The position numbers and the translations under genes were made by a program. A stretch of 64,000 bases of DNA from Flavobacteriales bacterium. GTDB lineage: Bacteria; Bacteroidota; Bacteroidia; Flavobacteriales_F; PHOS-HE28. Positions 36,806-46,314 of the stretch are shown in pieces (within the stretch, counting starts at the first letter, position 1; every line of letters starts with the position of its first letter). The notes under the pieces were generated by a model, which was not told the origin of the DNA, ran no database searches, and saw nothing but the letters and a program-made list of their open reading frames with translations. The stretch lies in the NCBI GenBank assembly GCA_020852835.1, contig JADZAC010000012.1, positions 58,499-122,498 on the forward strand, given 5' to 3'.

Positions 36806-36876
36806 AGGTCGCGTGCGGATTCGAACCGCAGTAGCAGCTTTTGCAGAGCTGTGCCTAGCCACTCGGCCACGCGACC
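36806..36876 (-). tRNA. tRNA-Cys (anticodon GCA)
   Basis: The 71-nt minus-strand sequence GGTCGCGUGGCCGAGUGGCUAGGCACAGCUCUGCAAAAGCUGCUACUGCGGUUCGAAUCCGCACGCGACCU folds into a cloverleaf: 7-bp acceptor stem, D-arm, anticodon loop CUGCAAA (U33-GCA-A37), T-loop UUCGAAU, discriminator U. CCA not encoded. Confidence 0.85.
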
Positions 36877-39204: not shown

Positions 39205-39330
39205 AGCGTATTGATCGGTTCCTTACGGGTTGAACTAGCGCGAAGCGATAGGGGTGCACAAAGATAAGGATGTATGCAGGCCCGAGGGGTGCGGCCGCGC
39301 AGCCGCCTGCGTGGCTAGCGTTTCCGGGTG

Positions 39331-39361
39331 TTGGAAACAATTATTGTACAAAACGTTTCCA
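39331..39361. promoter_or_regulatory. candidate TetR operator: inverted repeat TTGGAAAC-N15-GTTTCCAA enclosing the palindromes TTGTACAA and AAACGTTT, overlapping a TAnnTTTG-type -7 box (TATTTTTG at 39378-39385)
   Basis: Read directly. Located 35-65 nt upstream of the TetR start codon. A second TGTACAA half-site lies at 39363-39369. Confidence 0.4.
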
Positions 39362-39395
39362 ATGTACAAGTTGTTTCTATTTTTGCGCCCCGGAA

Positions 39396-40058
39396 ATGGA
39401 ACTTACGGACGAAAGACCGAAGGATGAACGCGGCGTACGCCTCCTGGAGGAGGCGGCGAAGGTGTTCATGTCCTGCGGCATCAAGGGCGTTACCATGGAC
39501 GACATGGCCACGCGGCTCGGGATCAGCAAGAAGACACTGTACCAGCATGTGAAGGACAAGAACGACCTGGTGGAGAAGGTGCTCACGCAGTTCAGTGAGC
39601 ACAACCGCTGCAAGATCACCAGCTTGTTGGGGAAGGGCGACAACGCGATCGATGAGCTGTTCGACATCCATACCAGCCTGGCCGTCCAGCTACGGGGCAT
39701 CCATCCCTCCATCCACTTCGACCTGGAGAAGTACCACCCCGAGGCGTTCCGGCGGTGGATGGACAGCCAGCGGGCGGAGATCTATACCTGCCAGGCCCAG
39801 AACCTGGAGCGCGGCATCCGGGAGGGGCTGTACCGGGAGGGGATCCACATTCCCATCATCGCCACCATCTACATCGCCCGCTTCGATATGATCTTCGACG
39901 GCACCCTGTTCCCTCCGGAGCGTTTTGCCTTGAATGAAGTGCTCTGGGAGCTGTACCGTTACCACGTGCGAGGCATCGCCAGCCCCAAGGGGATCAAATA
40001 CCTGGAGAAAAAAGTGGCGCGCGAGATGCGGCCTTCACCAACCATTGCACGCAAGTAA
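39396..40058 (+). CDS. TetR/AcrR-family transcriptional regulator
   Basis: N-terminal HTH (GIKGVTMDDMATRLGISKKTLYQHVKDKNDLV). First gene of the efflux operon. Internal Met at 39396 chosen. Confidence 0.85.
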   Translation: MELTDERPKDERGVRLLEEAAKVFMSCGIKGVTMDDMATRLGISKKTLYQHVKDKNDLVEKVLTQFSEHNRCKITSLLGKGDNAIDELFDIHTSLAVQLRGIHPSIHFDLEKYHPEAFRRWMDSQRAEIYTCQAQNLERGIREGLYREGIHIPIIATIYIARFDMIFDGTLFPPERFALNEVLWELYRYHVRGIASPKGIKYLEKKVAREMRPSPTIARK

Positions 40059-40068
40059 AGCGAACAAC

Positions 40069-41388
40069 ATGAGGCGATCCATCATCGCGGCATTCATCCT
40101 GCTGGCAGGCGCGCTGGCGGCCCAAGGGCCGGTGAGCCTGTCCCTGCAACAGGCCATGGACCAGGCTGCCACGCAGAGCTACTCCGTGCAGTACAGTACC
40201 CTGGAGGCTGAAAAGGCCGAAGCCAAGATCAAGGAGATCTTGGGTGTCGGTCTTCCCCAGGTGGCGGCATCCGCGGGGTTGAACAACTACCTGAAGGTGC
40301 CCACCCAGGTGATCCCCAACTTCTTCGGCAATGACCCGCCCACCATGGAGATCCAGTTGGGTGTGCCCTGGATGCTGAACGGCGGCGTGCAATTGAACCA
40401 GCTGCTCTTTGATGGCAGCTACCTCGTGGGGCTTCAGGCCACCCGGGAGCTCAAGGAGAAGGCGGGCATGGACCTGGAGAAAGCACGGCATGATGCGCGT
40501 GCACAAGCCGCCAAGGCCTACTACGCGGTACTTGCCGCGGAGGAAGGTGTGCGGCTGCTGGGGGAAAGCCTGCCCCTGCTGGAGAAGAGCACCAATGACG
40601 CGCAGGCCATGGTGCAGCAGGGCTTTATGGAAAGCACCGATGTGGACCGGCTCACCATACAGCTTGCCGATACACGAAACCGCCAAAGCAACCTGAAGCA
40701 GCAGGCCAACGTGGCCCGTGCCTACCTGGCCTTGGTGCTGGGCCTGCCCGGCGGCACACCGATCACCCTCACCGACCCGCTGGACCATTTGATGGGCGAT
40801 GCCGTCGAAAAGGCATTGGCGGCGCAACCCTTCGATGCGGCGCAGCACATCGACCAGCAACTGGCCGCTTCCCAAGTGCGCCTGGCCGGTATGGAAGTGC
40901 GCCACCAACAGGCCGGCTACCTGCCGCAATTGGCCGGGTTCATCAACTACCAGCAGCAGTTCAACAGCACGGAGTTCAACCCGGGTGAGGGGCCCTGGTT
41001 CCCATCCTCCATGTGGGGCCTCTCGCTGAACGTGCCGATCTTCAGCAGCGGCATGCGGCACAACCGCGTGAAACAGGCGCGCATCACCATGCGGGAAGCC
41101 GAGGTGAACAGCACTGCCACCGAGCAGCGGCTGCGCACCGAACACTTGCAGCAGCTAGCCGTGCTCACCGCGGCTGAGGACAGCTACCAAACGGCCAAGG
41201 CCAACATGGCGCTTGCAGGCACCATTTTCCAACGCACCACCGTGAAGTTCAACGAAGGCATGGGCAGCAGCTTCGAGCTCACCCAGGAGCACGCCAACTA
41301 CCTCACGGCACAACAGCACTACATACAGGCCATGCTGGACCTTCTGCAGTCCCGCACGGACATGCGCAAGGCACTGGACCTGTATTGA
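40069..41388 (+). CDS. TolC-family outer membrane efflux protein
   Basis: Signal peptide plus a duplicated alpha-helical/beta-barrel OEP repeat architecture. Follows the TetR gene by 10 nt. Confidence 0.85.
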   Translation: MRRSIIAAFILLAGALAAQGPVSLSLQQAMDQAATQSYSVQYSTLEAEKAEAKIKEILGVGLPQVAASAGLNNYLKVPTQVIPNFFGNDPPTMEIQLGVPWMLNGGVQLNQLLFDGSYLVGLQATRELKEKAGMDLEKARHDARAQAAKAYYAVLAAEEGVRLLGESLPLLEKSTNDAQAMVQQGFMESTDVDRLTIQLADTRNRQSNLKQQANVARAYLALVLGLPGGTPITLTDPLDHLMGDAVEKALAAQPFDAAQHIDQQLAASQVRLAGMEVRHQQAGYLPQLAGFINYQQQFNSTEFNPGEGPWFPSSMWGLSLNVPIFSSGMRHNRVKQARITMREAEVNSTATEQRLRTEHLQQLAVLTAAEDSYQTAKANMALAGTIFQRTTVKFNEGMGSSFELTQEHANYLTAQQHYIQAMLDLLQSRTDMRKALDLY

Positions 41389-41467: not shown

Positions 41468-42634
41468 ATGACACCAACGATCAAACGAGCATGGCCCCTG
41501 ATCCCCGTACTGGTGCTGCTCCAAGCATGCGGCGGCGGGCATGCCGACGGGGAGGTGGCCCGAAAACGGGCGGAACGCGACTCGCTGAAAGCGGCCTACG
41601 AACAGGTGGGCAAGCAGCTCAAGGCCGTGGAGGAATGGCTTGTGGAGAACGACAGCACCGTGCACCGCAACCTTCCGGTGATCACTGCGGCGGCCGTGGC
41701 CAACGAACCCTTCGCCCACTATGTGGACGTGCACGGCAACGTGCGTGCGGACAAGGCTGCCGCCCTGTACAGCAACGGCGGCCGGGTGCGCAAGATCCAT
41801 GTGGCGCCCGGCGACCGGGTGGCCGCAGGCCAGCTGATCATCACCATCGACAACGACCTGGCCGCGGAACAGATCCAACAGGCCGAGGCCGCCGTGGACC
41901 TGGCCCGCACCGCCTTCCAGAAGCAGGAGCGCCTGTGGCAGCAGAAGATCGGCAGCGAAATGCAATACCTGCAGGCCAAGAGCCAGAAGGAGCAGGCCGA
42001 GGCCGGCCTGGCCACCCTGCGCGAGCAGCAACGCCTCACCAACATCACCGCACCGTTCAACGGCACGGTGGATGAGATCATGGTGCGCATGGGCGACATG
42101 ACGAGCCCCATGCAGCCGGCGGCCCGCGTGGTGGACCTCAGCGGAGTGCAGCTGGAAGCGGATGTGCCCGAGAGCTACCTGCGCACGATCAAGACCGGCG
42201 CACCGGTGGTGGTCACCTTTCCTTCAGTGGGCGACACCTTCCAAGCCAAGCTGGACCATGTGGGCCAGTTCATCGACCCCGCCAACCGCACGTTCAAAGT
42301 CACCGTGCGGGTGCCCCAAGGCGAGCGCCTGATGCGCCCCAACCTGCTCAGCGACATCAGCATCCAGGACCACCGCAGCGACAGTGCCCTGGTGGTGCCC
42401 GCCCGGGCCGTGCTGCAGGACGTGAAGGGCAACAACTACGTGTACGTGCTGGACACCACCAACGGTGGTGATGAGGCCAAGGCGCGCAAAGTGATGGTGC
42501 AGCGCATCAGCGAATACAAAGGCCGCGTGCAGGTGGCACCGGTGGACAACGGCGCGCTCAAGGGCGGCGACCGCATCGTGAACGAAGGTGCCAAGAACGT
42601 GACCGACGGATTGGCCGTGCGCGTGGCGAATTGA
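41468..42634 (+). CDS. efflux RND transporter periplasmic adaptor subunit (MFP, lipoprotein)
   Basis: Lipobox LLQAC, coiled-coil hairpin, biotinyl/lipoyl-like and beta-barrel domains typical of HlyD/AcrA. Confidence 0.85.
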   Translation: MTPTIKRAWPLIPVLVLLQACGGGHADGEVARKRAERDSLKAAYEQVGKQLKAVEEWLVENDSTVHRNLPVITAAAVANEPFAHYVDVHGNVRADKAAALYSNGGRVRKIHVAPGDRVAAGQLIITIDNDLAAEQIQQAEAAVDLARTAFQKQERLWQQKIGSEMQYLQAKSQKEQAEAGLATLREQQRLTNITAPFNGTVDEIMVRMGDMTSPMQPAARVVDLSGVQLEADVPESYLRTIKTGAPVVVTFPSVGDTFQAKLDHVGQFIDPANRTFKVTVRVPQGERLMRPNLLSDISIQDHRSDSALVVPARAVLQDVKGNNYVYVLDTTNGGDEAKARKVMVQRISEYKGRVQVAPVDNGALKGGDRIVNEGAKNVTDGLAVRVAN

Positions 42635-42650
42635 AAAGGCGGAAGGGGTT

Positions 42651-42754
42651 CACCACAGAGGCACAGAGGACACAGAGAAAGACCACATGAAGCGGCAAGG
42701 AGCGGATCAGCGAGTGCGAGTTGCATTCCTCTGTGTCTCCGCGCCTCTGTGGTG
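42651..42754. repeat. imperfect long inverted repeat with tandem CACAGAG units in the adaptor-pump intergenic spacer
   Basis: Left arm caccacagaggcacagaggacacagag (CACAGAG x3, 42651-42677), a 51-nt loop, and right arm ctctgtgtctccgcgcctctgtggtg (42729-42754). The outer 11 bp and inner 9 bp are perfectly complementary. Confidence 0.5.
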
Positions 42755-42768
42755 AAAAGCATTCCAGC

Positions 42769-45700
42769 ATGAGCTCACACGACATCGAAAAAGACCTGCA
42801 CGGCCCCGAGCGCCAATTCGCCATCACCAGCTGGGCGGTGAAGAACCGCACCACGGTGATCGTGCTCACCCTGCTCATCTGCGTGATGGGCATCCGGGCC
42901 TACTTCGTAATGCCCAAGGTGAGCTTCCCCGAGGTGGTGACCCCCGAGGTGTTCATCGGCACCCCGTACAACAGCAGCTCGGTGGTGGACATCGAGAAGC
43001 TCATCACCAAGCCCATCGAGAAGGAGCTCAACACCATCAGTGGCGTGGATGAGATCAAGAGCACCAGCGTGCCCAACTTCAGCTCCATCCACATCAAGTT
43101 CGACTACAACGTAACCCCCACCGAGGCCTTGCGCAAGGTGAAGGATGCCGTGGACAAGGCGCGCGGCGATGCCGATTTCCCCCGGGACCTTCCTGCGGAG
43201 CCCAACGTGTTCGAGATGAACTTCTCGGAGCTGATCCCGGTGATGAACATCAACCTCAGCGGCGACTACCCCATGGAACAGCTCCATGAGTATGCGCGGC
43301 ACCTGGAGGACCGCATCGAAGACCTGGCCGAGATCAACAAGGTGGAGATCCGCGGGGTGCCGGAACGCGAAGTGAAGGTGAGCGTGGACCTGGCACAACT
43401 GGAAGCCCTGCAACTGAACTTCGACGACATTGCCAATGCGCTGCGATCGGAGAACCTCACCCTCAGCGGCGGCGAGATCCTTACCCAGGACCAGCGGCGC
43501 AGTGTGCGCGTGATCGGTGAATTCACCGGCATGGAACAGGTCCGCAACATCGTGGTGAAAAACGAGAACCAGCGCGAGGTGCGCCTGCGCGATGTGGCCG
43601 ATGTCACCTTCGGCTTCAAGGAACCGGAGAGCTTCGCACGGGAGTACGGCAAGAGCGTGGTGATGCTTGACGTGATCAAGCGGGCCGGCGAAAACCTGCT
43701 GGATGCAAGCGACAAGATCAACGCCATCATCAAGGAAGACCACGGCACCGTGCTGCCCAAGGACCTGGTGATCACCCTCACCGGCGACCAGAGCGACCAG
43801 ACCCGCGTGAGCGTGGATGAGCTGATGAACCACATCGTACTGGGCGTGATCCTGGTGGTGGGCGTGCTCATGCTCTTCCTGGGCCTGCGCAACGCCGTGT
43901 TCGTGGGCTTGGCCATCCCCATGTCCATGTTCATCTCCTTCACCCTGCTCAATGCCTTCGGAGTGACCCTGAACATGATGGTGCTCTTCGCCCTGATCCT
44001 GGCCCTTGGCCGCCTGGTGGACGACGGCATCGTGATCGTGGAGAACATCCACCGCCACATGACCAATGGCGAACCCGCCCTGAAGGCCACCCGGCTGGCC
44101 GTGGGCGAGGTGACCATGCCCATCATCGCCGCCACCACCGCCACGGTGATGGTGTTCGTGCCGCTGCTCTTCTGGCCCGGCATGATGGGCGAGTTCATGA
44201 AGTACCTGCCCATCACCTTCATGATCGCGCTGGCCAGCTCGCTCTTCGTGGCGCTGGTGGTGAACCCGGCGCTGGCATCCAAGTTCATGCGGGTGGAAGA
44301 GGACCATATGCCCACCCGCAAGATGTGGCGCTGGGCCCTCATCCTCAGCGTGGCGGGGGCGGTGGTCGGTGCGCTGGGGGCCGGCATGCAGAGCAACGGT
44401 GTCTTCGGTATCGGCATGCTCATTATCTTCTTCGGCCTCATGGGTATTGCCAATGAAAAGCTTTTCGTGCCCGCCGCCCATTGGTTCCAATACTCCTGGC
44501 TGCCCCGATTGGAGGCGCGCTACGAGCAGTTCCTCCGTTATGCCTTGGCCAAGCACCACCCGCGCACCTTCCTCCTGGGCACGGTGGGCTTGCTCATTCT
44601 GGCATTCATGCTCTTTGGCCTGTTCCCGCCCCAAACCGTGTTCTTCCCCACCAACCAGCCCCAGTTCATCAACGTCTTCATTGAGGCGCCGATCGGTACG
44701 GACATTCTGCGCACCGACAGCATAACGCGGCTGGTGGAAAAGCAAGTGATGAAGGTGATCGACGTGCCGCAATTCCGGGAGGTGCGCGAGATCAAGGATG
44801 ACCAGGGCAACGTGACGGGCACCGACACGGTGAACTTCCTGGTGAACTCGGTGATCGCGCAGGTGGGCGAGGGCACCAGTGACCCCGGCACGGGCGAAGT
44901 GGAGCTGAGCGCCACCCCGCACAAGGCCCGGATCCAGGTGAACTTCGTGAAGTTCGCCGACCGCCACGGGGTGAACACCAACGATGTGCTGGCCAGCCTG
45001 CAAAAGGGCGTGGCCGGTTATCCGGGCGTGGTGACCACCGTGGTGAAGAATGCCGACGGCCCGCCTACGGGCAAGCCGATCAACATCGAGATCCGCGGCA
45101 AGGACATCAACGGCTTGCTGGACGAGGCCGAAAAGGTCAAAGCGTTCATCGAGAGCAAGAACGTGCCTGGCGTGGAGGCTTTGCGCATCGATATTGACCG
45201 CGCCAAGCCCGAGATGCCCATTGTGATCGACCGCGAAAAGGCGCGCCGCCTGAACGTGAGCACCTACCAGGTGGCCGATGCCATCCGCACGGCACTCTTC
45301 GGGAGGGAGGTGAGCACCTACCGCATCGAGGGGGACGATGATGACTACGAGATCAACGTGCGCCTGAAGGACGCGTACCGGTACGATACCCAGCGCCTGA
45401 TGGACATGAAGATCACCTTCCGCGACATGCTCAACGGCCAGATCAGGCAAGTGCCCATCAGCGCCGTGGCCAAGGAAGAGTACAAGACCACCTTCAGCGC
45501 CATCAAGCGCAAGGACCTCGACCGCGTGGTAACGGTGAGCAGCAACGTGGTGGCCCCTTACAACAACAACGAAGTGGTGCAGCACATCAAGGACGAGATG
45601 GCCACTGGCTACCACGTGGACGACCGCTTCAACCTGCGTTTCACCGGTGAGCAGGAGGATCAGGCCAAGGACATGGGCTTCCTGATGACCGCCTTCCTGG

Positions 45701-46314
45701 TGGCCATCTTCGTGGTGTTCCTCATCATTGTGGCGCAGTTCAACAGCATCAGTTACCCCATGATCGTGATGAGCACGGTGGTGTTCAGCACCATCGGAGT
45801 ATTCCTGGGCTTGATCGTTTTCCGCATGGATTTCGTGATCTTGATGACCATGCTGGGCATCATCTCGCTGATCGGCGTGGTGGTGAACAATGCGATCGTG
45901 CTCATGGATTTCGCCCGGCTGCTTTTCGCCCGCGCACAGCGCAAGCTGGGCTTGGCCGAAGACACCGTCATCCCCATTGAAGAAAGCCGCGAGGCCTTGG
46001 TGCTGGCCGGCCGTACGCGTTTGCGGCCCGTGCTGCTCACTGCCGTAACGGCGGTGCTCGGTCTACTACCGCTGGCCATCGGCCTCAACTTCAACTTCTT
46101 CACCCTCTTCAGCGAATTGGACCCCCACATCCACATGGGCGGCGACAATGTGGTGTTCTGGGGGCCGTTGAGCTGGGCAGTGATCTACGGGCTCATCTTC
46201 GCCACCTTCCTCACGCTGATCATGGTGCCGGTGATGCTGCTGATCGTGCAGAAGATCAAGCACCGCAGGCAGTGGAAGCACCAGTTGCACGAAGCTGGAA
46301 AGGCAGCCGCTTAG
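42769..46314 (+). CDS. efflux RND transporter permease subunit (AcrB/HAE1-like)
   Basis: 12-TM RND architecture. TM4 motif LVDDGIVIVEN with an AcrB-like DD pair. 1181 aa. The ORF-track start 42721 runs through the hairpin, so the Met at 42769 was chosen. Confidence 0.9.
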   Translation: MSSHDIEKDLHGPERQFAITSWAVKNRTTVIVLTLLICVMGIRAYFVMPKVSFPEVVTPEVFIGTPYNSSSVVDIEKLITKPIEKELNTISGVDEIKSTSVPNFSSIHIKFDYNVTPTEALRKVKDAVDKARGDADFPRDLPAEPNVFEMNFSELIPVMNINLSGDYPMEQLHEYARHLEDRIEDLAEINKVEIRGVPEREVKVSVDLAQLEALQLNFDDIANALRSENLTLSGGEILTQDQRRSVRVIGEFTGMEQVRNIVVKNENQREVRLRDVADVTFGFKEPESFAREYGKSVVMLDVIKRAGENLLDASDKINAIIKEDHGTVLPKDLVITLTGDQSDQTRVSVDELMNHIVLGVILVVGVLMLFLGLRNAVFVGLAIPMSMFISFTLLNAFGVTLNMMVLFALILALGRLVDDGIVIVENIHRHMTNGEPALKATRLAVGEVTMPIIAATTATVMVFVPLLFWPGMMGEFMKYLPITFMIALASSLFVALVVNPALASKFMRVEEDHMPTRKMWRWALILSVAGAVVGALGAGMQSNGVFGIGMLIIFFGLMGIANEKLFVPAAHWFQYSWLPRLEARYEQFLRYALAKHHPRTFLLGTVGLLILAFMLFGLFPPQTVFFPTNQPQFINVFIEAPIGTDILRTDSITRLVEKQVMKVIDVPQFREVREIKDDQGNVTGTDTVNFLVNSVIAQVGEGTSDPGTGEVELSATPHKARIQVNFVKFADRHGVNTNDVLASLQKGVAGYPGVVTTVVKNADGPPTGKPINIEIRGKDINGLLDEAEKVKAFIESKNVPGVEALRIDIDRAKPEMPIVIDREKARRLNVSTYQVADAIRTALFGREVSTYRIEGDDDDYEINVRLKDAYRYDTQRLMDMKITFRDMLNGQIRQVPISAVAKEEYKTTFSAIKRKDLDRVVTVSSNVVAPYNNNEVVQHIKDEMATGYHVDDRFNLRFTGEQEDQAKDMGFLMTAFLVAIFVVFLIIVAQFNSISYPMIVMSTVVFSTIGVFLGLIVFRMDFVILMTMLGIISLIGVVVNNAIVLMDFARLLFARAQRKLGLAEDTVIPIEESREALVLAGRTRLRPVLLTAVTAVLGLLPLAIGLNFNFFTLFSELDPHIHMGGDNVVFWGPLSWAVIYGLIFATFLTLIMVPVMLLIVQKIKHRRQWKHQLHEAGKAAA

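Follow-up and report, generated by a model that had tools for sequence, protein, structure and literature searches.

A 108-nt imperfect hairpin built from CACAGAG heptamers lies between the adaptor and pump genes of an RND efflux operon in a Flavobacteriales genome (GCA_020852835.1, contig JADZAC010000012.1). It is probably an inserted member of a dispersed family of palindromic repeats whose effects on RNA are incidental. The arm of the hairpin is repeated over hundreds of genomes and within the same samples, which bears out the suggestion of the first-pass annotation that the structure could be a small repetitive extragenic element. Small palindromic intergenic repeats are a known kind of element; the distinctive features here are the identity of the arm across phyla and the candidate nuclease partner. 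The hairpin would accordingly be an accessory insertion and not a conserved part of RND-pump regulation, and should still perturb the coupling of adaptor and pump in this genome. The wider interest lies in an identical arm shared across phyla, a constant architecture, a high copy number in some isolates, and a physical linkage to the GxxExxY family.

Structure of the hairpin

The hairpin occupies positions 42649-42756 of the window, that is, of the whole 64-kb stretch of DNA that was analysed, and is its only copy there. It starts 14 nt past the adaptor stop and ends 12 nt short of the pump ATG (Table 1). The description in the first-pass annotation, with three CACAGAG units on the left, two complementary units on the right and a 51-nt loop in a 134-nt spacer, is correct. 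CACAGAG is found on the forward strand at 42654, 42662 and 42671, and its complement CTCTGTG at 42729-42735 and 42745-42751. Only one further CACAGAG occurs in the whole 64 kb, and the heptamer total of the window is not above chance (6 against 7.9 expected). The non-random feature is the clustering of five heptamers within 100 nt in a mirror arrangement. The inverted arms TTCACCACAGAGGCACAGAG (42649-42668) and CTCCGCGCCTCTGTGGTGAA (42737-42756) are 20 nt long and 90% complementary, and inner registers pair in addition.

The spacer RNA (134 nt, 42635-42768) has a minimum free energy of -59.9 kcal/mol, against -39.3 +/- 3.4 kcal/mol in 200 dinucleotide shuffles. This corresponds to z = -6.16, and none of the 200 shuffles folds as well. 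The stem is imperfect, comprises about 28 bp and closes the 51-nt loop. The middle unit of the right arm has diverged, which leaves two A.C mismatches in the sense RNA. Independently assembled contigs of this genome, namely JGI contig L128 and the Logan contigs L127 and L129, likewise contain the complete hairpin.

Table 1. Parts of the adaptor-pump spacer and the two genes that border it
Feature	Position	Strand	Description
RND periplasmic adaptor (MFP)	41468..42634	+	Pfam HlyD_D23/HlyD_3; identical to MCC6839033.1
Left flank, AAAGGCGGAAGGGG	42635..42648	+	14 nt, purine-rich, T-less, from adaptor stop to stem base
Left arm module	42649..42677	+	TTCAC + CACAGAG-G-CACAGAG-GA-CACAGAG
Loop X	42678..42728	+	51 nt; 5' two thirds T-poor; contains a GCGAGTGCGAG stretch; GTTGCATTCC abuts the right arm
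Right arm module	42729..42756	+	CTCTGTG-T-CTCCGCG-C-CTCTGTG + GTGAA; within an A-less run, 42726-42754
Right flank, AAGCATTCCAGC	42757..42768	+	12 nt, ahead of the pump ATG
RND permease, AcrB family	42769..46314	+	Pfam ACR_tran; identical to MCC6839034.1

The left arm lies inside a 37-nt T-less run (42651-42687). The left flank does not align to the 6-11-nt spacers of insert-free relatives. In the right flank, CATTCCAGCATGAGC is common to the window and to the relative L131, though the hairpin of L131 differs. The repeated TGAAAAG (42632 and 42753) shares bases with the stem, and no clear target-site duplication was found. GCATTCC at 42723-42729 recurs just past the right arm, at 42759-42765. 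The motif TTGC(R)CATT(Y)C stands directly 5' of the right arm in the window (42721-42729), in L131, L142, L249 and L133, and in Planctomycete copies, and thus crosses both arm-unit types and phyla.

Efflux operon and gene starts

The gene order is TetR, OMF, MFP, hairpin, RND, and the adaptor ends with TGA at 42632-42634. The first-pass annotation noted that translation from the listed start of the pump gene would run through the hairpin. The listed ORF, from TTG 42721, does read through the stop-free arm, which accounts for that start in the list. Judged by Pfam coverage and by the N-terminus MSSHDIEKDL, which is kept in relatives, the true pump start is ATG 42769, so the hairpin is not translated as part of the pump. 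The listed starts of the TetR gene (39270-40058) and the OMF gene (39934-41388) overlap by 125 nt, whereas the public gene calls give proteins of 220 aa (TetR) and 439 aa (OMF).

A Bacteroidetes-type -7 motif, TATTTTTG, occurs at 39378-39385 and is the sole such motif in the operon region. It lies upstream of TetR and may be the operon promoter. Near the hairpin the search for Bacteroidetes -7 motifs gives none, and a sigma-70 scan finds nothing at the hairpin. As the nearest -7 motif is the one upstream of TetR, the hairpin is expected to lie within a polycistronic transcript. A tRNA gene is located about 2.4 kb upstream of the operon, at 36806-36876 on the reverse strand (Rfam, 60 bits).

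Distribution of the arm

The first-pass annotation had proposed a search for other copies of the arm, and this search is positive. A scan of one genome per species (596 Gb) locates the exact 24-mer CACAGAGGCACAGAGGACACAGAG (42654-42677) in at least 120 genome stretches, which belong to more than 12 phyla, whereas about 0.004 occurrences are expected by chance. By label, the carriers include Planctomycetota, Verrucomicrobiota, Acidobacteriota, Gemmatimonadota, Chloroflexota, Cyanobacteriota, Myxococcota, Thermodesulfobacteriota, alpha-, beta- and gamma-Proteobacteria, Bacteroidota, Hydrogenedentota, Armatimonadota, and one Methanocellaceae MAG. MAGs make up the majority of the carriers, and those labelled as archaeal or as 'Klebsiella' owe the label to binning alone. 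The taxon labels look doubtful, or depend on binning, for L050 and L064 (CALQJI02..., 'Klebsiella pneumoniae' MAG) and for L040 (the Methanocellaceae MAG). Isolates with the 24-mer include three Sorangium strains, Lyngbya CCY1209, Baaleninema PCC 7105, and Reyranella. It is also found in 29 viral contigs, and on replicons of Bacteroides finegoldii, Anabaena cylindrica PCC 7122, Nostoc, and Sphaerospermopsis. Such an identical 24-base arm across phyla and phages is hard to explain without horizontal spread.

A mirror arm is found within 300 nt in 111 of the 168 arm occurrences, and the loops between them are mostly 10-150 nt long. Loops are unrelated between lineages and common within a genome, as in six loci of one Gemmatimonadaceae MAG and in a Gemmataceae/Singulisphaera set. 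The loop of the window was found in the same genome and in L133, and nowhere else in the sampled loci or viral sequence. Logan short-read contigs of the window's genome, drawn from several runs, end or begin within the left arm and overlap there by 31 nt, which indicates that the arm is multi-copy in those samples. High copy number is evident in a cultured isolate: the sister CGCAGAG hairpin occurs at no fewer than 40 places on each of the two plasmids of about 1 Mb of Gemmatirosa kalamazoonensis (NZ_CP007129.1 and NZ_CP007130.1).

Module anatomy and gene context

The architecture is constant and consists of TTnACC, tandem C-R-C-R-R-A-G units, a variable loop, and then the mirror arm. Each arm module comprises a TTnACC-like tip and two to five tandem 7-9-mers of the consensus C-R-C-R-R-A-G with a purine-rich tail. 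The sister units CGCAGAG, CACGAAG, CGCGAAG, CACGGAG, CGCAAAG, and CACAAAG occur in the same loci. The 5' arm is T-less and the 3' arm A-less, whichever strand is read. The arms therefore contain no stop codons, ATG codons or -10-like boxes, and ORF callers run through them because they are free of stop codons. For the same reason of composition, a single arm cannot fold on itself, and only the two arms together can pair.

Six bases outside the 24-mer vary (TTCAC, TTAAC, TGAAC, TTTGC, and others) and stay complementary across the stem. At this stem base 4.08 of the 6 positions pair on average, against 2.70 +/- 0.11 with shuffled partners. The stem tips were also considered as parS half-sites or tRNA T-loops, and this idea was dropped because the tips vary yet remain complementary.

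All copies examined are intergenic. Their flanking genes are co-directional in 35 cases, convergent in 14, and divergent in 10. An in-frame coding insertion was rejected, as the 12 apparent 'in-ORF' cases are spurious ORFs or upstream read-through. Within 700 nt of the arms, at about 150 loci, the only families that recur are those of one phage lineage and a generic ATPase. Neither a transposase recurring near the arms nor a long element with these ends that carries one was found, and distant arm pairs are rare.

Same-orientation arm arrays are present in L037 (186-400), L058 (6440-6850), and L024 (6727-6990). The L037 array consists of five 34-nt copies followed by one right arm. The L058 array comprises about 430 nt of T-poor modules of the flavours CGCAGAG, CACAGAG, and CGCCAAG, has no right arms, and lies upstream of a ychF-like gene. 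Phage L212 has hairpins of differing flavours at 910-1048, 1986-2106, and 2580-2832, in three successive structural-gene spacers, and a 91-nt loop segment of this phage recurs elsewhere in it at 88-89% identity. The contigs L212, L216, L220, L227, L230, and L232 represent one phage and are 99.9-100% identical, so a fine-scale phage comparison is not possible.

The adaptor-pump spacer in relatives

The first-pass annotation had also proposed a comparison of the same spacer in related genomes. One relative has the same element, several have other hairpins of the same superfamily, and most have a short spacer. The spacer is 1-36 nt long in 58 of the 66 relatives with a measurable adaptor-pump spacer, and long spacers of 108-170 nt occur only in the group of GC-rich Flavobacteriales to which the window belongs, where different superfamily members fill them. 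The window's sister on the adaptor tree, L130 (82% aa identity), has an insert-free spacer of 11 nt. Insert-free spacers are likewise found in L132, L137, L139, L140, and L141 (66-76% aa; 6-11 nt) and in P0005, P0006, and P0010 (76-78% aa; 10-11 nt).

The element of the window recurs in L133. Here 103 of 108 positions are identical (95%), including all 51 of the loop, whereas the 3' end of the adjoining adaptor gene is 77% identical at the nucleotide level. L131, the sister of L133 (91% aa to L133), has a GCGAGRG-type hairpin. A ACCGCGACG-type hairpin is present in L142 and L136 (75-80% aa) and in the closest relative, L249, whose flanks are 86-90% identical in nucleotides. The occupancy and type of the hairpin at this spacer, as judged from the adaptor sequences, are incongruent with the host (adaptor) tree. 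This incongruence, and an element far better conserved than its neighbours, point to turnover at a hot spot and not to vertical descent. The five differences between the window and L133 are all in the right arm, a pattern that simple recent common descent does not explain. Three differing hairpins at one spacer in close relatives could also mean that a hairpin is selected there. Insert-bearing spacers cannot be aligned to insert-free ones, and no exact insertion boundary is definable; the protein database contains no relative closer than 89% aa, which keeps the boundaries from being placed precisely.

GxxExxY genes and other cargo

Some of the hairpins enclose a gene. In L046 and L067 the CACAGAG hairpins enclose a complete ORF of 129-130 aa that matches TIGR04256 GxxExxY / PF13366 PDDEXK_3 (E = 1e-41). 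L007 has a GxxExxY gene remnant enclosed by the arms, and L024 has a GxxExxY gene flanked by hairpins. All four GxxExxY genes at the arm-selected loci thus adjoin such arms.

An independent sample comprises eight GxxExxY genes picked by protein similarity only, with tblastn on plasmids. Three of the eight are arm-enclosed and one more has a hairpin directly adjacent. The enclosed genes have C-R-C-R-R-A-G arms and are those of B. finegoldii (L241, at radA and an FAD-dependent protein), Bernardetia (L243, at ade and a manC-like gene), and Sphingomonas (L244, at fabD and fabG). The gene of Gemmatirosa (L242, record not annotated) has a C-R-C-R-R-A-G hairpin directly downstream. The Treponema gene (L245), upstream of a Fic-family gene, has a different inverted repeat, and those of Fusobacteria (L248) and Prevotella (L247), between annotated genes, have direct repeats. 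Nothing is evident at the Persicobacter gene (L246, record not annotated). The annotated GxxExxY cases are all co-directional with their neighbours and sit in very tight spacers, and in this their sites resemble that of the window hairpin.

In L244 (Sphingomonas parapaucimobilis NZ_CP155749.1), CGCGAAG-type arms surround the GxxExxY cassette at 357-822, which lies between fabD and fabG, and the annotated CDS of 142 aa reads on through the A-less right arm, which inflates the protein annotation. The direct repeats around the GxxExxY gene in L247 (Prevotella nigrescens) and L248 (Fusobacteria bacterium ZRK30) are about 20-30 nt long and may represent a duplicated target or a different type of cassette. 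In the viral contigs L223 (4186-4540) and L226 (1445-1800), an ORF of 88 aa (MTRPDSHQSDLPDRRCETCRH...) that matches nothing in Pfam or NCBIfam lies between CACAGAG arms, and hence cargo other than GxxExxY exists. An alignment search of the viral contigs for GxxExxY finds nothing, and PF13366 has no sequence match in the PDB. Multiple inter-division transfers of PF13366 have been reported (PMC3424549).

A GxxExxY gene or remnant is found in only three of about 111 hairpins. As most loops have no trace of GxxExxY, the nuclease genes may have entered pre-existing hairpins. The hairpins may derive from the cassettes, or the nuclease genes may home into hairpins.

RNA-level properties

At -54.5 kcal/mol, the sense fold of the window hairpin is 8.6 kcal/mol weaker than the antisense fold (-63.1 kcal/mol). 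Under selection on the sense RNA, transition mismatches should appear as G.U in the sense strand, and those of the window appear as A.C. Of 31 copies flanked by co-directional genes, 17 fold more stably as sense RNA and 14 as antisense RNA, with 131 and 140 G.U pairs on the two strands. These 31 oriented copies therefore have no sense-strand bias in stability or in G.U pairs. With no sign of selection on mRNA structure, the palindrome is a property of the DNA.

The sense strand has no T/U run after the stem (GGTGAAAAGCATTCC), and a terminator scan at the hairpin gives only a weak 5-bp motif in the loop on the opposite strand. Rfam 15, at gathering and permissive thresholds, gives only plant miRNA hairpin models at 20-30 bits, against gathering thresholds of 62-85 bits.

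A physical effect on the mRNA is likely, but would be incidental. By analogy, the hairpin probably breaks translational coupling in the polycistronic mRNA, as it opens a gap of 134 nt. The stem is expected to start about where the footprint of a terminating ribosome ends, and a duplex of about 28 bp would be a typical RNase III substrate. It may thus act as an RNase III substrate or as a 3'-exonuclease barrier, as a side effect only. The 28-bp IVS stem of Coxiella is an RNase III substrate (PMC4990558).

Alternative explanations

Selection for an RNA function would give the hairpin a different standing. It would then be an RNase III site or a 3'-exonuclease barrier that lifts the output of the adaptor, and of the OMF, over that of the pump. 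The REP between malE and malF of E. coli raises the output of its upstream gene in a comparable way. This explanation is unlikely. The very stable stem just past the stop codon, in an operon without internal promoter motif, agrees with it, and so does the covariation at the stem base; the two A.C mismatches that weaken the sense fold and the lack of sense bias in the 31 copies do not. Several close relatives have some long hairpin at exactly the same spacer, with differing sequences, yet the great majority, the sister lineage of the window included, have short spacers. One phage has such hairpins in three consecutive structural-gene spacers, but in the whole set the copies stand equally at convergent and divergent spacers. 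Between the window and L133, moreover, the loop is invariant and the stem has decayed, the opposite of what is expected of a structure-constrained RNA. The first-pass annotation had considered a determinant of adaptor and pump stoichiometry on the mRNA, and as a selected function this idea is not supported.

The other explanations have less in their favour than the insertion of a dispersed repeat. A protein-binding DNA site, with the tandem 8-9-bp mirrored units as operators for a regulator (the TetR of the operon, for example) or for a nucleoid protein, is very improbable. Multimeric DNA binders typically have mirrored periodic repeats as their sites, and the operon begins with a TetR gene. 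In opposition to this, the hairpin is 3.3 kb downstream of the likely promoter, and the same arms are found in unrelated gene contexts in many phyla. On this ground the protein-binding site named at first pass is unlikely to be one dedicated to the operon. The units also swap by transitions (CACAGAG, CGCAGAG, CACGAAG, CGCGAAG, and others) within one genome or phage, and a sequence-specific binder would not tolerate such swaps. That the hairpin serves as an intrinsic terminator or attenuator ahead of the pump gene is scarcely credible either: the strong GC-containing stem lies directly downstream of a stop codon, but there is no U-run, the scan makes no prediction at the stem, and a 51-nt loop is atypical. 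Chance or an assembly artefact is effectively refuted by the independent assemblies, since the NCBI MAG, L128, L127, and L129 all contain the complete hairpin. The unremarkable heptamer count of the whole window and the breaks of short-read assemblies at the element could have raised this suspicion, against which the fold z of -6.2, the homologous copy in L133, and the hundreds of copies elsewhere also speak.

Proposed mechanism and significance

The insertion of a dispersed repeat remains the preferred explanation. The hairpin would be a small non-autonomous palindromic repeat of the REP/MITE/IVS-like kind, inserted at the DNA level, with two modules mirrored around a variable loop. The repeat would spread, or take the place of hairpins already there, through a process based on a nuclease or on recombination, for which the GxxExxY protein would be the best candidate enzyme. 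For the window copy, which has no ORF, the enzyme could be supplied in trans, or the copy could be a relic. Since neither stop or ATG codons nor -10-like boxes can arise from the arms, insertion in operon spacers should be tolerable.

Mobilisation of the hairpin family by GxxExxY proteins is a tentative proposal and is more doubtful than the insertion itself. It is possible, though we would not expect it, that the C-R-C-R-R-A-G hairpins form a pan-bacterial class of mobile cassettes, in which the inverted arms frame either nothing or cargo, typically a GxxExxY protein of the PD-(D/E)XK type. The nuclease would then recognise hairpin or cruciform targets and would cause the resident hairpins of operon spacers to be inserted into or replaced. 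The hot spot at the spacer and the function of an orphan nuclease family would both be accounted for in this way. If the family is mobile, it represents a class of repeats spanning phyla, at which short-read assemblies break and through which spurious ORFs arise and annotated ORFs are lengthened. It would further provide a testable function for PF13366 proteins and a testable origin for IVS-like hairpins.

Comparison with known elements

In the running text of the openly accessible literature, figures aside, neither ten arm sequences nor the bare heptamer nor the concepts of REP, heptamer and hairpin lead to a relevant paper. The family is apparently undescribed and unnamed.

REP/BIME/REPIN: These elements of Proteobacteria are short extragenic palindromic units that occur singly, in inverted pairs forming hairpins, or in arrays. 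REP elements can reach a high copy number, often lie in operons after stop codons, and can stabilise the upstream mRNA or stall terminating ribosomes. The REP unit is itself palindromic, carries a conserved GTAG/CGTC tetranucleotide as its 5' head, is specific to a lineage, and goes together with RAYT (Y1) transposases. In contrast, the CACAGAG arm has no T and is not self-palindromic, consists of tandem heptamers, and is identical over more than 12 phyla. No RAYT recurs within 700 nt of the CACAGAG arms at about 150 loci.

MITEs: The Neisseria Correia elements, the cyanobacterial Nezha elements, and other small dispersed repeats are 100-250 bp long, have terminal inverted repeats, and occur in many intergenic copies. 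They are co-transcribed with their neighbours, their copies within a genome share internal sequence, and nested insertion is known in cyanobacteria. The hairpins are similar in having inverted arms of 25-30 nt, element lengths of 60-250 nt, and several copies per genome with common loops. They differ in that neither a target-site duplication nor a transposase-bearing parent was found for them, only GxxExxY-bearing versions. Their arms are conserved across phyla, whereas their interiors are unrelated between lineages.

Rickettsia palindromic elements: RPEs resemble the hairpins in being palindromic selfish DNA that avoids stop codons, so that insertion is tolerated. RPEs, however, insert in frame within genes, whereas the copies examined here are intergenic and the pump start lies downstream of the hairpin.

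Homing-endonuclease cassettes: Free-standing cassettes such as T4 seg/mob resemble the GxxExxY copies in having a small nuclease gene co-directional between conserved genes, with a patchy and phylogeny-incongruent presence at the same intergenic site. They are not framed by long inverted arms of heptamer repeats, and the endonuclease role of GxxExxY is putative.

Intrinsic terminators: The hairpin differs from these in its 51-nt loop and in the lack of a T run after the stem.

Intervening sequences of rRNA: The 23S rRNA IVSs of Coxiella, Leptospira, and Salmonella have a terminal stem of about 28 bp and a variable loop with a possible small ORF (PMC4990558). The stem is cut mid-way by RNase III, and the IVSs are regarded as selfish and possibly mobile (PMC4990558). 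The hairpins resemble them in their long stem and in a loop that may carry a small ORF, as in the copies with a 125-aa GxxExxY ORF in L046, L067, L241, L243, and L244. IVSs are located in helices 9, 25 or 45 of 23S rRNA, whereas the window copy is in an mRNA spacer and none of the loci examined has a copy in an rRNA context. The ORF of the hairpins encodes a PD-(D/E)XK GxxExxY protein and not S23p. If the reading as mobile cassettes is true, the hairpins are the mRNA-spacer counterpart of the rRNA intervening sequences.
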